Shown piece after piece: positions 23,824 through 35,700 of a stretch of DNA of 64,000 nt (position 1 is the stretch's first letter; each line of letters begins with the position of its first letter). This DNA comes from Escherichia coli (lineage in GTDB: Bacteria > Pseudomonadota > Gammaproteobacteria > Enterobacterales > Enterobacteriaceae). A program made the position numbers and the translations under genes. The DNA is taken from assembly GCF_965641715.1 (NCBI RefSeq), contig NZ_OZ282453.1; one strand, 5' to 3'. The notes below the pieces were generated by a model. The model saw only the letters and a list, made by a program, of their open reading frames with translations, made no database searches and was not told where the DNA came from.

Positions 23824-24933
23824 TCACTCTGTTTCTGCTATCCATTCCGGGATTTTTGCTTCAAGCTCAAGCTGCGTGGTAAAGCCACTGTTATCAATGG
23901 TGTGCTCGGCTTTCGCAATAATCCAGTCCTGATTATCAATCTCGCTTTTAAATCCTGTTACCGTGCCATGCATTTCGGGGTAGAGTTCTGCTCGTCCACG
24001 TGTCAGCGTGATGGAGAATGATGCGGCTCCGCGTTGTAGTTGTTGCCACTTTGCCGCCGCTGCGCGTCTTGCTGCCTGCTCGTTCTGATAAGTCTTGCGT
24101 AACACAAACACATTGCCTTCCGCGCCTTCCATATAATCACCTTCACGGCTGCTGCTTTTCTCTTTTTTCGGTTTTGGCGGTTTGCGGCGTTTCACGCTGA
24201 CTTTTTTCTTTTTCCCGTAATTAAGATCAAGCCAGTAAGCGCGTACCCCCGTATACGCTTCGCGGTCAGCAATGCGGAACTGATGGCGATCGCCACTGCT
24301 GCGTGTGATGGCGAACGATGGCAACGGCTGGCCCTGTGCGTTCACGCCACCGCCGGGCATGATGAATAACAGATTACCGCTTTTTACCGTGGTGATTGCG
24401 CCCAGCATTTCCGCCATGCGCGTAAGGAAGGACATGTCACTTTCTTCGGTCTGGTCGGCGTGGTCGATTTCGATATCCATCAGCATTTCGCTGATTTGCG
24501 GTTTCAGACCGTACCGATGAGCGATGGCGGATACCACACGCTCAACGGTCACATCATGCCAGGACACCTCACGTTTAACGTTAAATTCATCCCGAAAATC
24601 TGCGCTTCTGGCTGAAACAGTCAGCCTGTCCGGCGGTCCTTCGTGTGCGATTTCATCAACAATGTAAGAGCCTTTTTCTGCCAGCGGTTCGCCTTTCCAG
24701 CCAATGAGAACCGTCAGGCGCGCGCCCCGTGGCGGTAGCTGCAACTGACCATCCGCATCATCCAGCGTGATGGTTAGCTGATCTGCCTCAAATCCCCGGT
24801 TGTCGGTCAGCGACAGGCTCATCAGGCGCTCTGCCACTCCGGACAGCGTTTTACCCTCCGCGAGAATATCAAAATCCGGCATTTTTACGGGGTCTGTGCT
24901 CTGACTGAGCAATTGCATGGTGGTATCGGTCAT
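23824..24933 (-). CDS. D: Tail protein gpD (late control gene D family)
   Basis: Conserved segments shared with P2 gpD (SLSLTDNRGFEADQL, RSADFRDEF, basic KKKVSVKRRKPPKPKK stretch, C-terminal GFTTQLELE). Start placed at MTDTTMQLL; the track ORF runs 44 codons further upstream. Confidence 0.8.
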   Translation of the reverse strand: MTDTTMQLLSQSTDPVKMPDFDILAEGKTLSGVAERLMSLSLTDNRGFEADQLTITLDDADGQLQLPPRGARLTVLIGWKGEPLAEKGSYIVDEIAHEGPPDRLTVSARSADFRDEFNVKREVSWHDVTVERVVSAIAHRYGLKPQISEMLMDIEIDHADQTEESDMSFLTRMAEMLGAITTVKSGNLLFIMPGGGVNAQGQPLPSFAITRSSGDRHQFRIADREAYTGVRAYWLDLNYGKKKKVSVKRRKPPKPKKEKSSSREGDYMEGAEGNVFVLRKTYQNEQAARRAAAAKWQQLQRGAASFSITLTRGRAELYPEMHGTVTGFKSEIDNQDWIIAKAEHTIDNSGFTTQLELEAKIPEWIAETE

Positions 24934-25090
24934 CTGCTTCCTCCCTGTGCGGCATGGTCGCATGTGCGTGTGGAGGGGGTTACTGCTTTTTGTTGTCGCC
25001 GTGGCGGGAGAACGGCGCAGGGGTGAGATTACGCGCGTGGTGGGTGATGATTGTTGCCGAATCATTTAACGGATACAAGGGGCTGAAGCT

Positions 25091-26275
25091 ATGAGTGAAA
25101 CTCGTTTTCATGGTGCCCGTGTTACGGAAAATACCGATCTGGTAACAGCGATTAACGATGTTGATTCCAGCGTTATCGGTATCGTGGCAACGGCGGATGA
25201 TGCGGACGCGAATCTGTTCCCGCTGAACAAGCCCACACTGCTGACCCGCGTCAATGACGTGCTGGGAAAATGCGGGACAACGGGGACGCTTTATCGTGCG
25301 CTTAAGGCCATCGCAGACCAGGTGAGCACAAAGGTGATCGTCGTTCGCGTGGCTGAACACAAAGAAGAAGACGGAAAGACGCAGGATCAACTGGTTATCG
25401 GTGGTTCTGAGGATGACGGCAGCTATACGGGGATGTATGCGCTGCTTGTTGCAGAGCAGGATGAAAGCATCGGATACCGTCCGCGTATTCTGGCCGCGCC
25501 GGAGCTGGACACGGAGGCGGTAACGAAATCCCTGTGCGTGATTGCAGGTAAACTGCGCGCGTTTGTGTATGCCTCATGTCACGGCTGTAACACGATGGCT
25601 GAGGCGATTACCTACCGCCAGAAATTCAACGAACGTGAGGTGATGCTCTTATGGCCGGACTTCATCGCCTACAACCCGAAAAGTGGCAAAAACGAAACGT
25701 TCCCCGCACCTGCCTATGCGTGCGGCCTTCGTGCGTACATTGACCATGAGCAGGGGTGGCACAAATCACTGTCCAACGTTCCGGTTAAAAATGTGCTGGG
25801 GATGTCGAAGCATGTGTTCTGGTCGTTGCAGGCCGAAGACAGCGATGCCAACAGCCTCAACAACAAAGAAATCACGACCATTATTCGTCGCAACGGGTTC
25901 CGCTTCTGGGGCAACCGCACACCGGAAACGAACGCCTACATCTTTGAGGTGTATACCCGAACCGCACAGGTGCTGGCTGATTCAATTGCGGAAGCGCAGT
26001 TTGAAACCATCGACAGTCCACTGACGCCTGCGAACGTGAAGGATGTTATCAGTGCCATCAGGGCAAAACTGGATTCACTGGTTACTGCCGGGAAACTGAT
26101 TGGCGCGGAGTGCTGGTATGACGTGGTGGATAACAGCACCACGGATTTACGTCAGGGGCGCGTGCGTATTCGCTACAAATATACGCCCGTTCCGCCACTG
26201 GAAGACATGGAGCTTTACCAGACGTTTACTGATGAATACTTTGAACCCGCATTTGCGGTGCTGGGAGGTGCCTGA
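25091..26275 (+). CDS. FI: Contractile tail sheath protein gpFI
   Basis: 394 aa; extended similarity to P2 FI (FPLNKP, KLRAF, WPDF, DHEQGWHKSLSNV, RRNGFRFWGNRT, YTRTAQV, YTPVPPLE). Confidence 0.9.
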   Translation: MSETRFHGARVTENTDLVTAINDVDSSVIGIVATADDADANLFPLNKPTLLTRVNDVLGKCGTTGTLYRALKAIADQVSTKVIVVRVAEHKEEDGKTQDQLVIGGSEDDGSYTGMYALLVAEQDESIGYRPRILAAPELDTEAVTKSLCVIAGKLRAFVYASCHGCNTMAEAITYRQKFNEREVMLLWPDFIAYNPKSGKNETFPAPAYACGLRAYIDHEQGWHKSLSNVPVKNVLGMSKHVFWSLQAEDSDANSLNNKEITTIIRRNGFRFWGNRTPETNAYIFEVYTRTAQVLADSIAEAQFETIDSPLTPANVKDVISAIRAKLDSLVTAGKLIGAECWYDVVDNSTTDLRQGRVRIRYKYTPVPPLEDMELYQTFTDEYFEPAFAVLGGA

Positions 26276-26787
26276 TGGCTGTGCCAAAACATCTTCGCTT
26301 TTTTACGCTGTTTGTGGATGGTGAAAACGAAGTGGGTAAGGTGACGTCCGTCACTCTGCCTAAGCTGACGCGCAAAACCGACAGCTACCGGGGTGGCGGC
26401 ATGATGGGTGCGGTAAGTATTGATCTCGGTCTGGACGACTCCGCGCTTGATGCGAGCTTTGTCATGGGGGGCGCAGTTCGTGAGCTGTTCCTTAAGTATG
26501 GCGGCACGATTGACGGCACGCTGCTGCGTTTTGCGGGTGAATACTACACCGATGCAGAAAGCGACCTGTATGAAGTCGAAATGCGCGGACGTGTGACGGA
26601 AATTGATATGGGGGAAGCCAAACAGGGCGAAGCCACATCACACACTTACGCCATTAAAAACACCTACTACAAGCTGAGTGTTAACGATCGCCCGTTGTGG
26701 GAGATTGACCTGCTGAACTTCATCTACCGGAAGGACGGCAAGGACATTGTGCCTGACCGTATCCGTTCCGCGCTTGGGCTTGGCTGA
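26275..26787 (+). CDS. FII: Tail tube protein gpFII
   Basis: 170 aa, immediately after the sheath gene (ATGATGGCT overlap); size and position as P2 FII. Confidence 0.85.
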   Translation: MAVPKHLRFFTLFVDGENEVGKVTSVTLPKLTRKTDSYRGGGMMGAVSIDLGLDDSALDASFVMGGAVRELFLKYGGTIDGTLLRFAGEYYTDAESDLYEVEMRGRVTEIDMGEAKQGEATSHTYAIKNTYYKLSVNDRPLWEIDLLNFIYRKDGKDIVPDRIRSALGLG

Positions 26788-26841
26788 TAAGTAATATGCA
26801 GGCGGCGCAGTGCGTCGCCTCTGACTGAAAGGAGTTTCCTG

Positions 26842-27207
26842 ATGAAAGAGACGAAAAACATCGATACCGAAAACACGGTAGTTACTGACACTGTGAAAGA
26901 AACCAGTGAGCGTGGCGTAAAACTTACCCAACCAATTGAGCGAGGCGGCGAAAAAATCACGTATGTGGAGATCACCGGGGCTATTGAGCAGGCTGGATCT
27001 CTGCGAGATTTGTCGCTGTCTGATGTGCTGAATCTGAAAGCGGAATCCATGTTTACGCTGCTGTCACGCGTGACATCACCGCGACTGGATGAAGTGACGA
27101 TCAAAAAAATGGCATCCCGTGACTTTATTCAGTTATGTGTGGTTGCCGTAAATTTTTTGAGCGGTGCGGACTCTGGCGGGAAGAACGAACAGGCGACGGA
27201 AGCCTGA
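26842..27207 (+). CDS. E: Tail assembly chaperone gpE
   Basis: 121-aa acidic ORF between tube and tape-measure genes; carries a slippery site near its 3' end. Confidence 0.75.
   Translation: MKETKNIDTENTVVTDTVKETSERGVKLTQPIERGGEKITYVEITGAIEQAGSLRDLSLSDVLNLKAESMFTLLSRVTSPRLDEVTIKKMASRDFIQLCVVAVNFLSGADSGGKNEQATEA
27153..27159 (+). other. Programmed -1 frameshift site for the E+E' fusion chaperone
   Basis: Heptamer T TTT TTG in the gpE frame; the -1 frame stays open to 27371 (E' extension), the same device P2 uses. Confidence 0.7.
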
Positions 27208-27321
27208 TCACGGTTGTGTGCTTTGAGCACATAGAAGACTTTGTGGCGGATATTGCCGCCATTTTTAACTGGTCGCCCGCCGAAATCTTCATGATGACTC
27301 CCGGCGAAGTGGTTAGCTGGC

Positions 27322-30165
27322 GTGAGCGGGCGGCACTTCGCAGCGGGAATACAGACAATGAAGACTCTTGATATCCGGGTCGCTTTCAGCGCCGTTGACA
27401 GGCTGACCCGGCCTGCCGAAAACGCCCGCCGCCTGATGGGGCAGTTTGGTGACTCCATCCAGCGAACGCAGGGGGCGATCAAAAATCTCGAGCGTCAGGC
27501 GCGTTCATTTGAGCGCGCCCGTGACGCTGTCAGTAAAGCGGATGCTGGCATATTGAAAGCACGACGCCAGCTTAACGCTCTTAATCAGTTACAACGCACG
27601 GGTACAGTGCTCAGCGAAAAACAACAAAAGCTGATGCAGCAGTTAAGCACCCGGCTTGAACGCCTGAATGAATCGCGCACACGGGAAATTCAGAAAATGC
27701 GGGAACTTGGCGGAGAGCTGAAACGCCACGGCATTTCCCTGACAGGCAGCGATAACACCATCCAGCAGGCCATCAGACGCACCGAACAGTACAACAACCA
27801 GCTTGAACGCGAACGGCAGGCGCTTGCGCGTGTAACGCGGGCGCGTGAGCGGTATTCGCGCGCGCAGGAAACCGCGGGAAAACTGAAAACAGGTGGTGCG
27901 CTGGCAATTGGTGCGGCAGCGGCGGGCGGCTATGCTGCCGGGCGTTTTTTGCAGCCCGCGATCGGGTTCGGCAAAGAGATGTCCCGCGTTCAGGCGCTGA
28001 CGCGAATCGACCAGAACAGCCCGCAGTTTAAGGCGCTGCGTGAGCAGGCGTTAAAACTTGGCTCTGAAACGCAGTTCACCGCAGGCGATGCCGCCAGTGG
28101 GCAGGCATTTCTTGCAATGGCTGGCTTCACACCGCAGGCCATTCAGGCTGCGCTCCCCGGAGTGCTGAGCATGGCAACGGCTGGCGGTATGGATCTCGGC
28201 GAGACGGCAGATATTGGCTCAAATATCCTGACGCAGTTCGGCCTTTCTGCTGACCAGATGGACCGGGTCGGTGACACGCTCACCGCAGCGTTTACCCGTA
28301 CCAACACTGACCTTCGCGCACTGGGCGAAACCATGAAATATGCAGGTCCGGTGGCGGGCAAGCTGGGAATATCGCTGGAGCAGGCCGCAGCGATGGCGGG
28401 CGTGCTGGCGAATATGGGTATCAGGGGAAGTGATGCCGGGACGGCAATGCGTGCCAGCCTGGCTCGTCTTGCATCACCGCCAAAGGCGGCAGCAGAGGCG
28501 CTGAAAGAGCTTGGTGTGGCAGTCTCTGACGCGAACGGCAAAATGCGCCCGATGGAGGATGTGCTGGCCGACCTTTATAAAGCCACCCGCAAATACGGGG
28601 AAGTTGACCGGGTATCGTTCTTTAAGGACATTGCCGGAGAAGAGGCTTTCACATCGTTTATGGCGCTCGTTGATGCAGCGGGTGACGGTTCCTTACCTAA
28701 ACTGAGAAAAGAACTTGAAGGCGCGCGCGGTGAGGCTGAACGCACAGCAAAGGTTATGGCCAACAACCTTGACGGCGATCTGAAATCACTCGGCAGTGCA
28801 TGGGAAGGGTTGCGCATCCGCATTGCAGATCTGATTGACGGCCCGCTGCGTTCTGTCACGCAGTGGCTCACGCGGGTGGTATCAAGGGTGACGGCGCTGG
28901 CGCAGGCCCATCCGGCACTGACGCGCCAGCTACTGATAGCAGGCGGTGCGTTGCTGGCAATGACTGCAACGATTGGCTCGTTGTCGCTGGTTATTGGCGT
29001 GCTTCACGGGAAACTGGCCACGTTACGTCTTGGTTTTTCTCTCCTGACCGGATCAATGAATGTCGTCAGGGTGCTGCCAGCACTATGGGGAATGGTAACA
29101 GGTTCCATCTCGTTGCTGGGTGGCGCTATCGGGGCGCTGTTCAGTCCGGTCGGATTGATTGTTGCCGCGTTTGTGGCTGCGGCGGTTCTCATCTGGAAAT
29201 ACTGGGAACCCATCAAGGCGTTTTATGCCGGGGTGTTCAGTGGAATTATGGAACGGCTGGCTCCGTTGCGCGAAACCTTTGAACGGTTTGGTCCTGTTTT
29301 TGATGTCGTGCGCGATGGGATTATTCAGCTCTTTAACTGGTTTAAATCGCTGCTGTCACCGATGGAGTCCAGCAAGGAAACGCTGGATAAATGTACCAGT
29401 GCTGGCGAGATATTCGGTAACGTTCTTGGTGGCGCGCTACAGCTTGTTCTGACGCCTGCAAAAATGCTGCTGGATACGCTGGCGTGGATACTTGAAAAAC
29501 TCGGTGTGCTTCCGGATGAAGCGGAAAGGGCGAGAAAGAAAATCGAAGACGCACAGCGTGCGGCCATTCTTCAGGACAAGGTTGCCTTGCTTCAGGGGGA
29601 CCTGGCGAAAATCAATCCGCCGAAGCCTGTGGAAAATGGCAATGGCACCGGAGGTGATAACCCCAAAGACAATAAACCGCTCACAGACAGCAATACCGGG
29701 ACGCTACGCAGACTCAGCAAAATTGCTGATAACACAGGTAAGCTGGTTGATGAGACGAAAAAACGCATTGGCCCCGGCGATATTGTCTTTAAGAACCTGC
29801 CCCGCGCACTTGCTGTTCGTGGGGAGTGGCAGGAGCGGAAGATTGCGCAGGTCAGTAAGCCTGCCCCCGCAATTAATATCACCCCCGTGGTCCCGGCTCC
29901 GCTGCCTCCGGCGCTGGTCCCTGTTGTTGCGGCCAGCTCCCGCCCGGTGGCGGAGGCCATACGATCTCCAGTGGCATCAGTTCCTGTAACTTCCCGTAAC
30001 CGGGAGCCTGTTGCCTCCGGATTTGGTGGTGAAATTCATGTTCATCTGCATAACGTTGTTACGCAGAATCCCCGCGAACTGGCGAAACTGGTCGGTGAAA
30101 TGGTCAGGGCAGAAATGGAACGGCGCGCCCGTGCCGGGCGTGGCAGTTTTTACGATAAAGATTGA
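27322..30165 (+). CDS. T: Tail tape-measure protein gpT
   Basis: 947 aa, Ala/Gly-rich with coiled-coil N-terminus and central hydrophobic segments; follows E/E'. Confidence 0.88.
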   Translation: MSGRHFAAGIQTMKTLDIRVAFSAVDRLTRPAENARRLMGQFGDSIQRTQGAIKNLERQARSFERARDAVSKADAGILKARRQLNALNQLQRTGTVLSEKQQKLMQQLSTRLERLNESRTREIQKMRELGGELKRHGISLTGSDNTIQQAIRRTEQYNNQLERERQALARVTRARERYSRAQETAGKLKTGGALAIGAAAAGGYAAGRFLQPAIGFGKEMSRVQALTRIDQNSPQFKALREQALKLGSETQFTAGDAASGQAFLAMAGFTPQAIQAALPGVLSMATAGGMDLGETADIGSNILTQFGLSADQMDRVGDTLTAAFTRTNTDLRALGETMKYAGPVAGKLGISLEQAAAMAGVLANMGIRGSDAGTAMRASLARLASPPKAAAEALKELGVAVSDANGKMRPMEDVLADLYKATRKYGEVDRVSFFKDIAGEEAFTSFMALVDAAGDGSLPKLRKELEGARGEAERTAKVMANNLDGDLKSLGSAWEGLRIRIADLIDGPLRSVTQWLTRVVSRVTALAQAHPALTRQLLIAGGALLAMTATIGSLSLVIGVLHGKLATLRLGFSLLTGSMNVVRVLPALWGMVTGSISLLGGAIGALFSPVGLIVAAFVAAAVLIWKYWEPIKAFYAGVFSGIMERLAPLRETFERFGPVFDVVRDGIIQLFNWFKSLLSPMESSKETLDKCTSAGEIFGNVLGGALQLVLTPAKMLLDTLAWILEKLGVLPDEAERARKKIEDAQRAAILQDKVALLQGDLAKINPPKPVENGNGTGGDNPKDNKPLTDSNTGTLRRLSKIADNTGKLVDETKKRIGPGDIVFKNLPRALAVRGEWQERKIAQVSKPAPAINITPVVPAPLPPALVPVVAASSRPVAEAIRSPVASVPVTSRNREPVASGFGGEIHVHLHNVVTQNPRELAKLVGEMVRAEMERRARAGRGSFYDKD

Positions 30166-30171
30166 GGAGTC

Positions 30172-30666
30172 ATGGCCATGATGATGATCTACGGCATGTT
30201 TGTTTTTGAGCTGCGCACGTTGCCGCATCAGCAGTTACAGCAAAACAAAAGCTGGCGGCATGTGAAAAATGAACGCGTTAACCGTTCAGCAAGCTGGCAG
30301 TATATCGGGGCAGGCGATGATCGCATCGTTCTTTCTGGTGTGCTTTATCCTGAAATTACAGGTGGCGAAGTGTCGCTTTCGTTGCTGACCACGCAGGCAT
30401 ATACAGGACGCCCCTGGCCTCTGATTGATGGTGTCGGGCAGATTTACGGCATGTATGTCCTGACCGGAACGAATACGACCCGTTCCGAGTTTGATCGCTA
30501 CGGTAAGGCGAAAAAGATAGAATTTTCACTGACCCTTGAACGCTGTGATGAGGATTTGCGGGAGCGCCTGCAATCCTCATCGTTCAGCGATATGCTGTCC
30601 GGCTTCAAAGATAAGGTGACATCATCTCTTAACAGCGCGGCCAGTTCAGTTAAAGGGCTGTTCTGA
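30172..30666 (+). CDS. U: Tail protein gpU
   Basis: 164-aa ORF directly after the tape-measure gene, the position and size of P2 gpU. Confidence 0.75.
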   Translation: MAMMMIYGMFVFELRTLPHQQLQQNKSWRHVKNERVNRSASWQYIGAGDDRIVLSGVLYPEITGGEVSLSLLTTQAYTGRPWPLIDGVGQIYGMYVLTGTNTTRSEFDRYGKAKKIEFSLTLERCDEDLRERLQSSSFSDMLSGFKDKVTSSLNSAASSVKGLF

Positions 30667-30675
30667 TTTAACACA

Positions 30676-30709
30676 AAAACCGCTAATGGTCAGATTAGCG
30701 GTTATTTTG
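30676..30709. terminator. Bidirectional intrinsic terminator between gpU and the invertase gene
   Basis: aaaaaccgctaatggtcagattagcggttattttgtttt: a 9-bp perfect stem (accgctaat/attagcggt) flanked by A-run and T-run, between convergent genes. Confidence 0.7.
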
Positions 30710-31307
30710 TTTTCTGACTCTTCTCTATTGCTCCGCTTGATTCTCCTGCGGGGTGGTAACGATAAATCGTCGATGTACCAATGCCGTAAATTATTGCCAG
30801 TTGTTTTCTGTCGTGACCGTTTTTAATCAGCCTTGCTATTTGCTCATGCTGTTCTTTTGTCAGCTTCGGGCGACGTCCGCCTGTGCGCCCCCGTGCGCGC
30901 GCTGCTGCCAGTCCGGCCAGTGTACGTTCAACAATTAATTCACGTTCCATTTCAGCCAGGGCACCCATCACGTGGAAGAAAAAACGCCCCATTGGAGAAG
31001 ATGTATCTATGCTGTCGGTCAGACTGCGAAAATTAATCCCTCGCTCCCGTAGTTCCCCGACGAGAGAAATCAGATGTTTCATGCTTCGCCCGAGGCGATC
31101 CAGTTTCCAGACAACCAGCGTGTCACCTTTTTGAAGACGCTTTAAAGCGCGTTTTAATCCCGGTCGGTCTGTCTTTGTCCCGCTTAATTTATCTTCAAAT
31201 ATTTGTTCACATCCTGCACAAACAAGAGCGTTTCGTTGCAGGTCTGTATTCTGGTCATTTGTTGATACCCTTACATAGCCAATCAGCACGCTGAATCTCC
31301 CGTCCAA
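30702..31307 (-). CDS. Serine DNA invertase (Hin/Gin/Cin/Pin family)
   Basis: IGYVRVSTNDQNTDLQRNAL...GDTLVVWKLDRLGRSMKHL...MGRFFFHVMGALAEMERELIVERT, near-identical in pattern to Hin/Gin including the catalytic Ser; C-terminal HTH. True start may lie a few codons inside the ORF. Confidence 0.9.
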   Translation of the reverse strand: MDGRFSVLIGYVRVSTNDQNTDLQRNALVCAGCEQIFEDKLSGTKTDRPGLKRALKRLQKGDTLVVWKLDRLGRSMKHLISLVGELRERGINFRSLTDSIDTSSPMGRFFFHVMGALAEMERELIVERTLAGLAAARARGRTGGRRPKLTKEQHEQIARLIKNGHDRKQLAIIYGIGTSTIYRYHPAGESSGAIEKSQKTK

Positions 31308-31368: not shown

Positions 31369-32374
31369 AACGGTAAACAGGGCTGGTAACGCCGTGCAAA
31401 AAAATGGCGATACTTTGTCCGGTGGGCTTACTTTTGAAAATGACTCAATCCTTGCCTGGATTCGAAATACTGACTGGGCGAAGATTGGATTTAAAAATGA
31501 TGCCGATGGTGACACTGATTCATACATGTGGTTTGAGACAGGCGACAACGGCAATGAATATTTCAAATGGAGAAGCAAACAAAGCACCACAACAAAAGAC
31601 CTGATGAATCTTAAATGGGATGCTTTGTATGTTCTTGTTAAAGCTCTTTTCAGCAGTGAAGTAAAAATATCGACAGTCAATGCACTGAGGATATTTAATT
31701 CATCTTTTGGTGCCATTTTTCGCCGTTCTGAAGAATGCCTGCATATCATCCCTACACGAGAGAATGAGGGGGAAAATGGTAATATAGGGCCACTACGTCC
31801 CTTTACGCTTAATCTCAGAACTGGCCGCATAACTATGGGGCATGGTCTGGATGTTACAGGAGATATAACAACTAACGCCTGGGTGTATGCAAACAGGTTT
31901 GCTATTAATAGTGGCTCAACCTCATGGATTGATATGCGAAACCAGAATGTCATTTTTGGTAGAAACGCAGTATCAACAAGTTCTGCGCAGGCTTTGTTAA
32001 GACAAGACCATGCAGAACGCAAATTTTTTGTCGGTGGACTTGGTAACTACCAGTTTGGTTTTTACATGATTAATAACTCAAGGACAGCCAATGGCACCGA
32101 TGGTCAGGCGTACATGGACAATAACGGTAACTGGCTTTGTGGCTCGCAAGTTATTCCTGGCAACTATGGCAATTTTGATTCCAGATATGTGAGAGATGTT
32201 CGCCTGGGTACGCGAGTTGTTCAATTGATGGCGCGTGGTGGTCGTTATGAAAAAGCCGGACACGCAATTACCGGATTAAGAATCATTGGTGAAGTAGATG
32301 GCGATGATGAAGCCATCTTCAGGCCAATACAAAAATACATCAATGGCACATGGTATAACGTCGCACAGGTGTAA
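31369..32374 (+). CDS. Alternative tail-fibre C-terminal cassette (silent in this orientation)
   Basis: Frame open from the crossover site; encodes ETVNRAGNAVQKNGD..., parallel to the H segment after its own site, and ends ...INGTWYNVAQV like the expressed fibre. No promoter or N-terminus of its own. Confidence 0.75.
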
Positions 32375-32905
32375 ATGATGCAGCATTTAAAAAATATTAA
32401 GTCTGGAAATCCTAAAACGAAAGAACAATATCAGCTAACAAAGAATTTTGATGTTATCTGGTTATGGTCCGAAGACGATAAAAACTGGTATGAGGAAGTG
32501 AAAAACTTTCAGCCAGACACAATAAAGATTGTTTACGATGCAAATAATATTATTGTCGCCATCACTAAAGATGCCTCCACGCTTAACCCTGAAGGTTTTA
32601 GCGTCGTTGAGGTTCCTGATATTACAGCCAACCGCCGCGCTGATGATTCAGGAAAGTGGATGTTTAAGGATGGAGCTGTAGTTAAACGGATTTATACGGC
32701 AGACGAACAGCAACAACAAGGCGAATCACAAAAGGCCGCATTGCTTTCCGAAGCTGAATCAGTCATCCAGCCGCTGGAACGCGCTGTCAGGCTGAATATG
32801 GCAACAGACGAGGAACGCACACGACTGGAAGCATGGGAACGCTACAGTGTTCTGGTCAGCCGTGTGGATACGGCAAATCCTGAATGGCCACAAAAGCCTG
32901 AATAA
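32375..32905 (+). CDS. Tail-fibre assembly chaperone (partner of the silent cassette)
   Basis: 176 aa, [26 protein letters not shown]...; clear paralog of the oppositely oriented 177-aa ORF. Confidence 0.8.
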
Positions 32906-32933
32906 AAATTAAGGCCCGCGATCGGGCCTTGTC

Positions 32934-33467
32934 TCATTCAGGTTGTTCGGGAAATGTTACTGGCAGGCTGGAGGTGTCTGTAGATTCGACTTTCTGCGCA
33001 TAGAGCATCCACTCGGTTAATTTTTGTTTATTCTCGTCGGAAATGATGCCCAGCCGTAGCTGTGAGTCCCATAGCTGGGTTTTATCCCTAACGAGCTGTA
33101 GCAGGCTTTGCTTTTCATTTTCCGCCTGCTGCCTCTGCTCTTCCTCGGTATAAGTTCGCTTTACCACTACGCCATCTTTGAACATCCATTTACCAGAAAT
33201 ATCAGCCCGGCGATTTGCTGTAATATCAGGAACCTCAACGACGCTTGCGCCTTCTGGATTAATTGCTGAAACATCCTTTTCAATACAAATAATAACGTTG
33301 TTGTGGTCATAGACCATTTTCAACGTATCAGGCTGAAAGTTCTTTTGTTCCTCATACCAGTTTTTCCCATCCTCTGTATAAAGCCATTTGATGTTAAATT
33401 GTTTCGTTAGCTGGTATTGCTCTTTTGTTTTAGGGTTGCCAGCAGTAATATTTTTTAAGTGCATCAT
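32934..33467 (-). CDS. Tail-fibre assembly chaperone (partner of the expressed fibre)
   Basis: 177 aa, [25 protein letters not shown]...; directly downstream of H on the same strand. Confidence 0.8.
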
Positions 33468-33469
33468 AA

Positions 33470-35698
33470 TTAAATACTCCCCGCGTTATACCACGTCCCA
33501 TTAATGCAATACTGAATTGGCCTTGCCTGAGTTGTATCAATTAATTCATCACGGTTTCCGTTAACTGAACCCGTAACGACATAACCTGACCTGTCAGACC
33601 AGCCGGGACCATTCCATGTCTGAACAGATGACAGACCGCCAAGGCGAATACCTGTAATAAACCTTGAGTTACATTCTGCCTGCGTGTATGCACCAACATC
33701 TCCCGCAGAGGGTTTGCGGGTCGTGGTGTAAAACTCTGACCAGTTAGCCTCAAATCCATAACCATCACGCGCTGAACGATAAAAAATACCGCCGTTCCTG
33801 TAATTCACGCGGAACTGTACAGCAGGGCAGCTCCCCGTATTCATATTGAAGTGGAGGATTAATGTCGATGCACCGCTGATATCTGCATCATAAACACCGC
33901 TATTCCAGTTCCAGCCAACAGCTTTATCATTTGCAACCCTGCTTCCTGTTTGCCCTAAAGCAAATGCAGGCTGCTGGTTTTTCGTGTTGTAGTCTCTTCG
34001 CCAGCCAGGAGCATAAGCATCACCATGATTAATATAAGTGAATTGAGCGTTAGAGGTGCCGCCTCCGGTGGAAGTGCTTGGTGTTGTTACACGGATGGTC
34101 ATGGCACCTTTATTACCCATAACCTCAATAACGCAACCTGCAAGATGAATAGTTCCACAGCCAGTATCGGTAATAATTTTATTATTGCCGTATGACCATG
34201 AACATTTGCACATCCAGTATGGGTGATTGAATGCCCCTTGAGAATCCAGCCATTCAATCAATTGTGCCGTTGTCCAGTTCCCTGCCCCTGTACTAATAGC
34301 ACTGTGAAAAGCGCGACATGCACCAATATTTTTTGTGAAGGTATCTTTTCCTGGAATATCTGCGCCGTTCTGGTTTTTCTGTAATGCGCCAGAAGCCTGA
34401 TTTACCGTTTCTTGTAAACCGAGGTATTCGATAACGGCAGCAACGGTCGATTTCGCAAGAATATCCCGCCCGACTTTTGTCAGGGTTGCCAGGCTGGCGA
34501 CATCATTCCCCGTAAAATACGGAAACCTGTCTGCCGCAGTAGCAAGCCCGGCCAGCGCCGTCAGGGTGGCATCTTTCGGTTGCTTACCCGCAAGCGCGTT
34601 AGTCATGGTGGTCGCAAAATTCGGGTCGTTTCCCAGCGCCGCCGCTAACTCGTTCAGCGTATTCAGTGCGTCAGGTGACGAATCTACAAGGGCGGCAATC
34701 GCAGCCATAACGAAAGCCGTGCTTGCGATTTGGGTATTATTCGTTCCCTGTCGCGCAGTTGGCGTTGTTGGCGTTCCGGTCAGCGCAGGACTGTTTAAGG
34801 GCGCTTTCTTGTTCGTTTCATCCATTACCGCCTTAACCGCTTTCGATGTCGCGGCCAGTGTTTCAGACGTGCTGTTGGTGGCACTACTGAGCTGGACTAT
34901 CCCTTTTTGTGCCGTCGTGGCGTCCTGAGCGGTATATTTTGCGTTAGCAAGGTCATACGCGGCCTTTACTGCTTTCGGCGTTGCAGCCTGCGTTTCAGAC
35001 GTGCTGTTGGTGGCGCTACTGAGCTGAACTATCCCTTTTCGCGCAGTGGTAGCGTCCTGTGCGGTGTATTTGCCATTAGCCAGGTCATATGCCGCCTTAA
35101 CAGCCTTTGGCGTTGCCGCAAGCGTTTCAGACGTGCTGTTAGTGGCGCTGCTAAGTTGAACAAAGCCTTTTGCGGTCAGCGAGGCGTCCGGGTGACGTCG
35201 TGAGTGTTCATGCTCTTTCAGTTTGTCATCCACGTAATCCACTGTGGCCATTACCATGGTGTTATCCACGGTAAGCGCCACGGTGGCAGTGCTGGATACG
35301 GTCAGAATGGTGCGAAATGTTTGTGCACGTCCTGACCCTTCGGCAACGGTTGGCTTGTAACTTTCGGCAGTATTGCCTACTGCGATTAAATCGCCGTGCT
35401 CATCAAACACACCAATTTCCCGGATCCAGAATCCGCCCGTTTCTGGAGGAATAACCAGCTCCGCAATAATGCGGTTCTGATGTGTTGCGTCCAGGATGAC
35501 GCGATTAACAGTGTGTCGCCACACCTCATGCACCAGACGGGTCTGCTTACTGTCTGGTGTGGGCAACGTGCCGCCACCGTCGCCCACGGCCATATGAGTC
35601 AGGCGGACAGGCTTACCATCTGGCGCGGCTGCCTGAGCTAATTTTTTTGCACCCGTATCGGTGATAACGGTTTTAAATTTTCGTGTTGTGGTACTCAT
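33470..35698 (-). CDS. H: Tail fibre protein gpH (constant N-terminus plus currently selected variable C-terminus)
   Basis: 742 aa; conserved phage-fibre N-terminus, three tandem 43-aa repeats, crossover site near codon 421, C-terminus ...[12 protein letters not shown]. Confidence 0.85.
34409..34434. repeat. Invertase crossover site, right (gix/hix-like 26-mer, inside gene H)
   Basis: ttcttgtaaaccgaggtattcgataa, the inverted partner of the left site. Confidence 0.8.
34906..35290. repeat. Three tandem ~129-bp repeats inside the tail-fibre gene
   Basis: The DNA repeats encode [43 protein letters not shown] three times with minor variation. Confidence 0.7.
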
Positions 35699-35700
35699 GC

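Follow-up and report, generated by a model that had tools for sequence, protein, structure and literature searches.

The window, a 64,000-nt stretch of Escherichia coli contig NZ_OZ282453.1, is a P88-like prophage (Xuanwuvirus, Peduoviridae) of a kind carried by roughly one in four complete E. coli genomes. Phage P88 is near-identical to the window (98.5% over 1226 nt), is inducible (PMC5285337) and, together with Citrobacter phage PhiSM, is one of two plaque-forming phages to which we refer below (PMC5285337, PMC6456863). The RM10740 prophage matched the window at 100% over 1226 nt; it carries an IS66 insertion where the window has an invertase and tail-fibre segment, and its gene D is truncated.

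Two reading frames between the tube and tape-measure genes

Based on Pfam matches, the tail block on the plus strand runs in the order sheath, tube, E, E', tape measure and U. It begins with the sheath gene FI (25091..26275; PF04984, PF22671 and PF17482), followed by the tube gene FII (26275..26787; PF04985, 7.5e-47) directly 5' of gene E, and continues through the tape-measure gene T (27358..30165, using the RefSeq start coordinate; PF10145, 2.3e-58) to a gpU-like tail gene, which is the last of the block (30172..30666; PF06995, 1.5e-38). E and E' are placed between the tube and tape-measure genes, as is found for the P2-type chaperone pair. Gene E (26842..27207) starts at an ATG at 26842, 7 nt downstream of a Shine-Dalgarno motif read from the sequence (AGGAG, 26830..26834), and ends at a TGA at 27205-27207; its zero-frame product of 121 aa is the predicted tail assembly chaperone.

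The -1 frame contains six stops among its first 93 codons and is then open from 27123 to a TGA at 27369-27371, overlapping gene E by 85 nt. The segment that we call E' (27159..27371) runs from the GAG codon at 27159-61 to this TGA (70 codons plus the stop), and the composite E+E' coding region (26842..27371) would yield a 176-aa fusion through a -1 shift. Within this region, RefSeq and GenBank place a stand-alone 51-aa ORF with a GTG start (27216..27371, 'GpE family phage tail protein'), which is best read as part of E+E'. As originally predicted, the -1 frame runs to 27371 and into the start of the tape-measure gene, overlapping its ATG at 27358 by 14 nt. The same prediction had the -1 frame opening exactly at the slippery heptamer, which proved incorrect: it opens 30 nt (10 codons) upstream, at 27123.

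Inspection of the sequence and reading frames confirmed the heptamer itself, T TTT TTG, at 27153..27159 in the gpE frame. It is phased as X XXY YYZ because the E-frame codons are AAT (27151-53), TTT (27154-56) and TTG (27157-59), and it corresponds to the P2 site by homology. It is overlapped by another in-frame heptamer, A AAT TTT (27150..27156), which the original prediction did not mention. Slippage at T TTT TTG would give ...VNFL-ERC... and slippage at A AAT TTT would give ...VNFF-ERC..., fusion products that are one residue apart.

To place these heptamers against chance expectation, we counted TTTTTTG in the window (39 copies compared to 20.6 expected) and set this count aside as evidence because the motif is too frequent. 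Long ORFs carry 0.0031 in-frame X XXY YYZ heptamers per codon, which corresponds to ~0.09 expected in the 28-codon overlap; the heptamer pattern by itself is thus expected by chance at ~9%. When the pattern was scored in 130 mechanical ORFs of the window (defined as an ORF with a -1 extension of at least 40 codons and a heptamer within the overlap), it was present in six, the other five of which are shadow ORFs inside longer ORFs, judging from their coordinates. Given the chance rate and the six of 130 ORFs, the heptamer pattern alone is weak evidence. At the level of sequence, it is homology and conservation, and not the heptamer pattern alone, that make the putative frameshift site real.

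Homology of E and the predicted fusion

The Pfam family PF06528 (Phage_P2_GpE) and PHROG 1756 were both matched by the frameshifted product only. The PF06528 match lay at fusion residues 135-170 (7.9e-12; 44.9 bits, cut-off 23), and the PHROG 1756 match (9.6e-39) began at residue 103, right at the slip site. The gene E product matched PHROG 103 'tail protein' (2.3e-35) and, weakly, PF10109 (Phage_TAC_7; 17.2 bits, under the cut-off of 25), with no NCBIfam match for this N-terminal part. Using BLASTP, the fusion aligned to P2 E+E' with 31% identity (E = 6e-26) over residues 23-172, continuously through the shift point. Homology to gpE-type proteins was therefore found for both the E part (PHROG 103 and BLASTP) and the E' part (PF06528), and a PDB search for a sequence relative returned none (best E = 0.69). 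In an alignment of 18 predicted fusions, the slip site fell at a nearly invariant F(L) column, and D137, A139, W144, A164 and R167 of E' were invariant.

In the FETUD tail operon of P2, programmed -1 frameshifting produces E and E+E' (Christie et al. 2002, as cited in PMC3091744), and the homologous TTTTTTG is where the P2 RefSeq record (NC_001895) places a -1 join. The P2-like arrangement proposed for the window was borne out by gene order, PF06528, the BLASTP alignment (6e-26) and a shared heptamer column. As in P2, T TTT TTG occupies the identical phase and alignment column, the site lies between FII and T, and E' ends a few nucleotides inside T. The two loci differ in the length of E (121 aa here compared to 91 aa) and of the fusion (176 compared to 142 aa), as well as in the distance from the slip site to the E stop (48 nt here compared to 21 nt), so that the E/E' overlap is longer than that of P2. 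In addition, the overlapping heptamer A AAT TTT is extra to the window, gene D is found upstream of the sheath gene, on the other strand, and not 3' of U, and the frameshift is unannotated in public records of Xuanwuvirus.

A parallel to the G/GT genes of phage lambda had also been proposed. The lambda heptamer is G GGA AAG, and none of the Pfam or PHROG matches was to a lambda-type family. The parallel is limited to arrangement and presumed function and does not extend to family membership: in both systems, two products with a common N-terminus would arise from a low-frequency -1 slip, encoded just 5' of the tape-measure gene (PMC5009743), whereas the lambda tail is non-contractile. In the G/GT-type pair, a fixed ratio is needed for tail assembly and neither product is found in the virion (PMC5009743). 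Xu, Hendrix and Duda (2004), whose work is reviewed in PMC5009743, described the frameshift in tail genes more generally.

Conservation of the slip site and the -1 frame

When viral contigs were scanned using the E protein, the only relatives returned were 98-100% identical, which is uninformative on conservation. Wider relatives were gathered by searching annotated phages with tblastn and by scanning again with the protein of PhiSM. Across 20 Peduoviridae loci from various genera, a set that includes the window itself, an in-frame X XXY YYZ heptamer was present at one alignment column in every case. It was TTTTTTG in 15 loci and a different X XXY YYZ heptamer in the other five, and in all 20 the heptamer fell within the overlap, with a -1 extension of 122-173 nt beyond the E stop. 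The sequences observed include C CCT TTC in Reipivirus Kp4847-1 (at the same position as A AAT TTT), A AAT TTT only in Citrobacter phage PhiSM, G GGA AAG in Mannheimia 587AP1, and T TTT TTT in Vibrio 1F53_PE003 and Burkholderia ST79. For Burkholderia phages KS14 and Milagro, the frameshift join is annotated. The window shares with other Peduoviridae the two-frame arrangement and the in-frame X XXY YYZ heptamer in the overlap, and is unusual only for having two overlapping candidate heptamers.

Among 158 close relatives from IMG/VR (100 distinct sequences), A AAT TTT was invariant. Approximately 40% of close relatives, including phage PhiSM, carry T TTT ATG instead of T TTT TTG, and all of these retain A AAT TTT, with the -1 ORF intact. 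The heptamer claimed as conserved is thus conserved across genera (TTTTTTG in 15 of 20 loci and some heptamer in all) but only in part within the genus, where the refuting condition named beforehand, a lack of heptamer conservation in relatives, partly applies. In E. coli genomes, T TTT TTG (P88-type only) was found in 819 compared to 599 with TTTTATG, a share of ~58% among genomes with either Xuanwuvirus allele type.

Of the 158 relatives, 153 (96 of 100 distinct sequences) had an intact, full-length -1 ORF, and a few (L047, L178 and others) had indels truncating E'. Based on 41 distinct close relatives, third positions of the -1 frame made up 22 of the 36 variable columns in the E'-only region, and 7 of 12 in the E/E' overlap 5' of the annotated GTG. 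Coding constraint, as read from this sequence variation, acts on the -1 frame.

Predicted slippage, alternatives and annotation

We consider it highly probable that E and E' are the tail assembly chaperone pair of a P88-like prophage, with E+E' predicted to arise from a -1 slip on A AAT TTT TTG. The candidate site is an ordinary, well-known P2-type -1 ribosomal frameshift giving E and E+E'. Most ribosomes would translate E (121 aa) and end at the stop at 27207, and a minority would back up 1 nt on A AAT TTT TTG (27150..27159) and continue in the -1 frame to 27371, yielding a 176-aa E+E' that has the N-terminus of E and ends in a conserved domain of the GpE type. If P2 E/E+E' and lambda G/GT are a guide, the two proteins may act in tail assembly around the tape-measure protein, the gene for which lies directly 3', and the E : E+E' ratio would be set by the slip frequency. 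Production of E+E' and its need for tail assembly are known for P2 only, according to the P2 RefSeq record and PMC3091744. The anatomy, the homology, the coding constraint on the -1 frame and the conservation of a slippery site at this column are observed here; slippage itself, its rate and the heptamer used are inferred.

It is very unlikely that E' is an independent small gene translated without frameshifting, from the GTG at 27216 (51 aa) or the ATG at 27135 (78 aa). PGAP and the P88 record do give a separate CDS at 27216..27371, as do many other Peduoviridae records, and the ATG-initiated 78-aa ORF exists mechanically. However, a search of the sequence 5' of the two start codons found no Shine-Dalgarno, and both conservation and third-position bias of the -1 frame extend beyond the GTG as far 5' as the slip site, where the PHROG 1756 match also begins (fusion residue 103). 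Annotated stand-alone starts vary between relatives, whereas the heptamer column is fixed, and the homologous P2 region is established as a frameshift product (P2 RefSeq record; PMC3091744).

The remaining alternatives concern how, or whether, a fusion is made at all. In transcriptional slippage, RNA polymerase would add one U on the homopolymeric T6 run at 27153-27158 and the ribosome would not slip. This run is short, as efficient transcriptional slippage needs ~9 or more T, and the T4 run (AAATTTTATG) is all that is found in ~40% of close relatives, including viable PhiSM, which keep the two-frame arrangement; other relatives carry the non-homopolymers G GGA AAG or C CCT TTC. E. coli genes avoid UUUUUUU and AAAAAAA in every one of the three frames, and transcriptional slippage may be the reason (PMC4066793), which lends the idea some credit, but we regard it as even less likely than an independent gene. 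Least probable of all is decay of the locus within a defective prophage, in which the heptamer and open -1 frame are kept by descent and yield no product. The -1 ORF is full length in 153 of 158 relatives and has codon-position bias, none of the ORFs for sheath, tube, E, E', T, U and D is shortened in the window, and near-identical P88 is inducible and plaque-forming (PMC5285337); these observations outweigh the E'-truncating indels in a few relatives (L047, L178 and others) and the RM10740 copy with its IS66 insertion and truncated gene D, which would fit such decay.

For the favored -1 ribosomal frameshift, we looked for stimulators. Downstream RNA structure was rejected based on folding z-scores and low covariation: neither 27160-27212 (z = +0.48) nor 27150-27260 (z = -1.71) was significant, and the covariation term in the consensus fold of 12 relatives was just -0.53 kcal/mol. 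The only tidy hairpins (27214-27234 and 27243-27262) are at least 55 nt downstream of the slip site. In having no downstream RNA structure, the locus resembles P2 and Burkholderia P2-like phages, for which the same is reported. No dnaX-like upstream Shine-Dalgarno stimulator was visible in 27120-27150. In E. coli, shifting on A_AAU_UUU reaches 11.4% when a strong stimulator is present (PMC4066793 Table S3), and without one both heptamers shift at only ~0.07-0.12% in reporters, close to the background of 0.055% (PMC4066793). Slippage at this locus may be very rare, unless a stimulator has gone unrecognised.

Since A AAT TTT is invariant and T TTT TTG is replaced in ~40% of close relatives, slippage may take place at either site or at both, and in our reading both heptamers can contribute. 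A AAT TTT would be sufficient alone because it is the only heptamer carried by phage PhiSM. We tentatively suggest, as a plausible refinement, that in Xuanwuvirus and Reipivirus the working slip site has moved one codon upstream to X XXU UUY (A AAU UUU in the window and C CCU UUC in Reipivirus, at the same position), leaving the ancestral P2-type U UUU UUG dispensable. If so, the two common E. coli prophage alleles would set different E : E+E' ratios, with allele AAATTTTTTG having two chances to slip and allele AAATTTTATG having one, possibly aided by a nearby hairpin, and the window would yield a mix of two fusions, ...NFF-ERC... and ...NFL-ERC.... Natural variation between TTG and ATG at the slip site provides a ready-made experiment on the heptamer used and on the frameshifting tolerated by tail assembly.

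The locus matters mainly for annotation, being a known kind of feature that opens no new biology. RefSeq labels the gene E product 'tail protein', and hundreds of E. coli genomes, like the P88-like phage records, list E' as a 51-aa gene of its own; with the E+E' frameshift product unannotated, the tail module is therefore mis-described. In public records, E' was also once named 'tail fiber protein' and once omitted.

The E/E' reading frames and their homology

The contractile-tail gene block that contains the E/E' region lies on the + strand. It comprises genes for the sheath (25091..26275; PF04984, PF22671 and PF17482), the tube (26275..26787; PF04985, 7.5e-47), E (26842..27207; a 121-aa ORF between tube and tape measure), the tape measure T (27358..30165; PF10145, 2.3e-58) and gpU (30172..30666; PF06995), with a good Shine-Dalgarno sequence, AGGAG, ahead of E at 26830-26834. 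The E-frame codons at the slip site are GTA AAT TTT TTG, which puts T TTT TTG (27153..27159) in the correct X XXY YYZ phase, as originally predicted. Six stop codons interrupt the first 93 codons of the -1 frame, after which it stays open from 27123 to a TGA at 27369-27371; it therefore opens 10 codons before the heptamer, not exactly at it as had been claimed, but does run to 27371, 14 nt inside the tape-measure gene (ATG at 27358). The predicted product of a slip is a 176-aa fusion, E+E'.

Homology searches supported the fused product. The zero-frame protein alone gave only a sub-threshold Pfam match (PF10109, 17.2 bits; cut-off, 25), whereas the frameshifted product matched PF06528 (Phage_P2_GpE) above the cut-off at residues 135-170 (7.9e-12). 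Using PHROGs, E was assigned to family 103 (2.3e-35) and the -1 part to family 1756 (9.6e-39), the latter match beginning at fusion residue 103, at the slip site. P2 makes a 91-aa E and a 142-aa E+E' from one start, with the shift at TTTTTTG (PMC3091744), and its RefSeq record joins E+E' from two pieces, noting a '-1 translational frameshift' at the homologous TTTTTTG. The proposed likeness to P2 was borne out by BLASTP, in which the fusion aligned to P2 E+E' (6e-26, 31% identity) continuously through the shift point; judged by sequence, T TTT TTG is the heptamer homologous to the P2 site.

The pattern alone is not beyond chance, and the case is carried by homology and conservation. The window contains 39 copies of TTTTTTG (20.6 expected), and the in-frame X XXY YYZ rate in long ORFs (0.0031 per codon) corresponds to ~0.09 expected in the 28-codon overlap. 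An ORF with a long -1 extension and a heptamer was found for 6 of 130 mechanical ORFs, of which the other five look, from their coordinates, like shadow ORFs within longer ORFs. Overall, a programmed -1 frameshift very probably makes E+E' here, and the evidence supports an unannotated case of the well-known P2 E/E+E' frameshift, which belongs with the general frameshifting of tail assembly chaperones.

Conservation, coding constraint and alternative explanations

We compared 20 loci from different Peduoviridae genera, including the window and phage P88. In each of the 20, the tube gene is followed by an E-like ORF, the -1 frame continues 122-173 nt beyond the E stop, and the overlap contains an in-frame X XXY YYZ heptamer. 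This heptamer was T TTT TTG in 15 loci, T TTT TTT in Vibrio 1F53_PE003 and Burkholderia ST79, G GGA AAG in Mannheimia (whose record marks it as slippery), C CCT TTC in Klebsiella Reipivirus and A AAT TTT in Citrobacter PhiSM, all at one place in the DNA alignment. When 18 predicted fusions were aligned, the slip site fell at a nearly invariant F(L) column, and D137, A139, W144, A164 and R167 were invariant in the E' part.

A set of 41 distinct close-relative sequences was compared; in the stretch that codes for E' alone (27208-27357), 36 columns varied, 22 of them at third positions of the -1 frame. Comparing the window with one PhiSM-type sequence (the allele with ATG rather than the P88-type TTG at the slip site), 6 of the differing codons were synonymous and 3 non-synonymous when read in the -1 frame; the corresponding counts for the other two frames were 0 and 9, and 1 and 8. 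The same bias was seen in the E/E' overlap 3' of the heptamer and 5' of the annotated GTG (27160-27207; 7 of 12 variable columns), which argues that -1 translation would begin at the slip site rather than at GTG 27216. Independent initiation of E' is further disfavoured by the absence of start signals and by conservation and PHROG homology reaching upstream of that annotated start.

Transcriptional slippage on the T6 run would also join the two frames, but is disfavoured because the same arrangement is kept in relatives with T4, G GGA AAG or C CCT TTC. A decayed remnant is likewise disfavoured: the ORFs remain intact with codon bias, and truncating indels occur in only a few relatives. In those IMG/VR relatives (L047, L178 and others), E' is truncated by single-base indels in or near the T run of ...GCCATTTTTAAC..., and the -1 extension is shortened in 4 of 100 distinct sequences by a stop codon or, in one of the four, because the contig ends there; such loci probably represent prophages in decay or faults of assembly.

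Overlapping heptamers and slip rate

The only non-routine elements are a genus-invariant second heptamer and a common TTG/ATG polymorphism. The second heptamer, A AAT TTT (27150..27156), overlaps T TTT TTG in the window and is invariant in 158 IMG/VR relatives (100 distinct sequences). The predicted conservation of T TTT TTG holds for 15 of the 20 Peduoviridae loci, but within the genus the heptamer is limited to the P88-type half, which reads AAATTTTTTG at 27150..27159, as opposed to AAATTTTATG in PhiSM-type relatives; one sequence (L180) has the ATG allele with P88-type flanks. Based on a 95-nt segment, the P88 type is present in 819 complete E. coli genomes and the PhiSM type in 599, all of them keeping A AAT TTT. 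The temperate phage PhiSM is viable (PMC6456863), the PhiSM-type -1 ORF is full length, and Reipivirus, the nearest other genus, has C CCT TTC exactly at the A AAT TTT position.

Published E. coli reporter -1 rates with no stimulator, IS911 stimulators and the IS3 pseudoknot, respectively, were 0.118%, 0.247% and 0.765% for U_UUU_UUG, 0.070%, 0.355% and 11.4% for A_AAU_UUU, and 0.193%, 1.39% and 23.2% for C_CCU_UUC (PMC4066793, Table S3); H_HHU_UUY motifs were among the best, and U_UUU_UUG was not one of them (PMC4066793). Invariance in the genus and these rates together make A AAT TTT the conserved and, in principle, more responsive candidate within Xuanwuvirus. Slipping at either heptamer would lead to the same -1 frame, with products differing by one residue (...NFF-ERC... 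for A AAT TTT and ...NFL-ERC... for T TTT TTG).

Folding revealed no significant structure 3' of the slip site (27160-27212, z = +0.48; 27150-27260, z = -1.71), a consensus fold of 12 relatives had almost no covariation support, and no upstream Shine-Dalgarno-like element was seen at the window slip site. The window resembles P2 and Burkholderia P2-like phages in this respect, for which downstream structures are reported absent (PMC3091744). The slip rate is therefore probably low, which would suit two chaperone products required in unequal amounts, by analogy with lambda G:GT (~30:1; PMC5009743).

In one PhiSM-type locus (L003, 2396..2440), the equivalent of 27160..27212 forms a hairpin 4-8 nt past A AAT TTT (-18.9 kcal/mol, z -1.79) that is less stable in the window (-11.9 kcal/mol, z +0.48); with marginal significance, it may be a compensating stimulator for the allele without T TTT TTG. 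A 9-bp hairpin at 27214..27234 (UUGUGUGCU/AGCACAUAG; z only -1.81) begins 7 nt past the E stop codon and differs between the P88 and PhiSM types by one compensatory U-A to G-C pair and two G-U-preserving changes, but at 55 nt beyond the slip site is too far for a classical stimulator. A terminator-like element inside E' (27243..27262; GTGGCGG-ATATT-GCCGCCAT then TTTTA) lies just 5' of the tape-measure start. Its stem, kept in 12/12 relatives folded, doubles as coding sequence for ADIAAIF, the best-conserved peptide motif of E', which makes structural and coding constraint inseparable.

Public annotation and the surrounding tail genes

The prophage is a Xuanwuvirus (Peduoviridae) of E. coli. 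Over 1226 nt it is 98.5% identical to P88, a plaque-forming, inducible phage (PMC5285337), and 100% identical to E. coli RM10740; of 5,426 complete E. coli genomes, 1,370 carry this segment. The frameshift is absent from the public annotation of this locus, and E' is mis-described: RefSeq lists E as 'tail protein' and, as a gene of its own, a 51-aa 'GpE family phage tail protein' (27216..27371, from GTG 27216), the P88 GenBank record names the small E' ORF 'tail fiber protein', and the PhiSM record (OR565851) omits it. Product names in OR565851 look displaced by one gene, the name 'late control gene D protein' being given to the sheath ORF and 'ogr' to the D ORF.

Gene order differs from the P2 FETUD operon in that the gpD-like hub gene (23824..25065, - strand; a single 413-aa ORF) sits upstream of the sheath gene and is read from the opposite strand. 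In RM10740 (L182, 25324..26177), the gpD annotation consists of an 801-nt 'VgrG/Pvc8 family' CDS and a pseudogene fragment, which may reflect truncation there or a different start choice. Between tube and E, a G+C-rich hairpin without a T tail (26800..26820; AGGCGGCGC-AGU-GCGUCGCCU) may reduce E and T expression relative to sheath and tube; a Mannheimia relative has a rho-independent terminator annotated at the same intergenic position. A bidirectional terminator-like hairpin (30678..30703) closes the + strand block after U. Beyond it, a serine invertase (30702..31307, - strand; Resolvase and HTH_7, 1.5e-50) adjoins tail-fibre-like ORFs on both strands (31394..35700), an arrangement suggestive of a Gin/Cin-type invertible host-range segment. 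In RM10740, whose prophage is otherwise almost identical, an IS66 element occupies this position and the invertase is missing.
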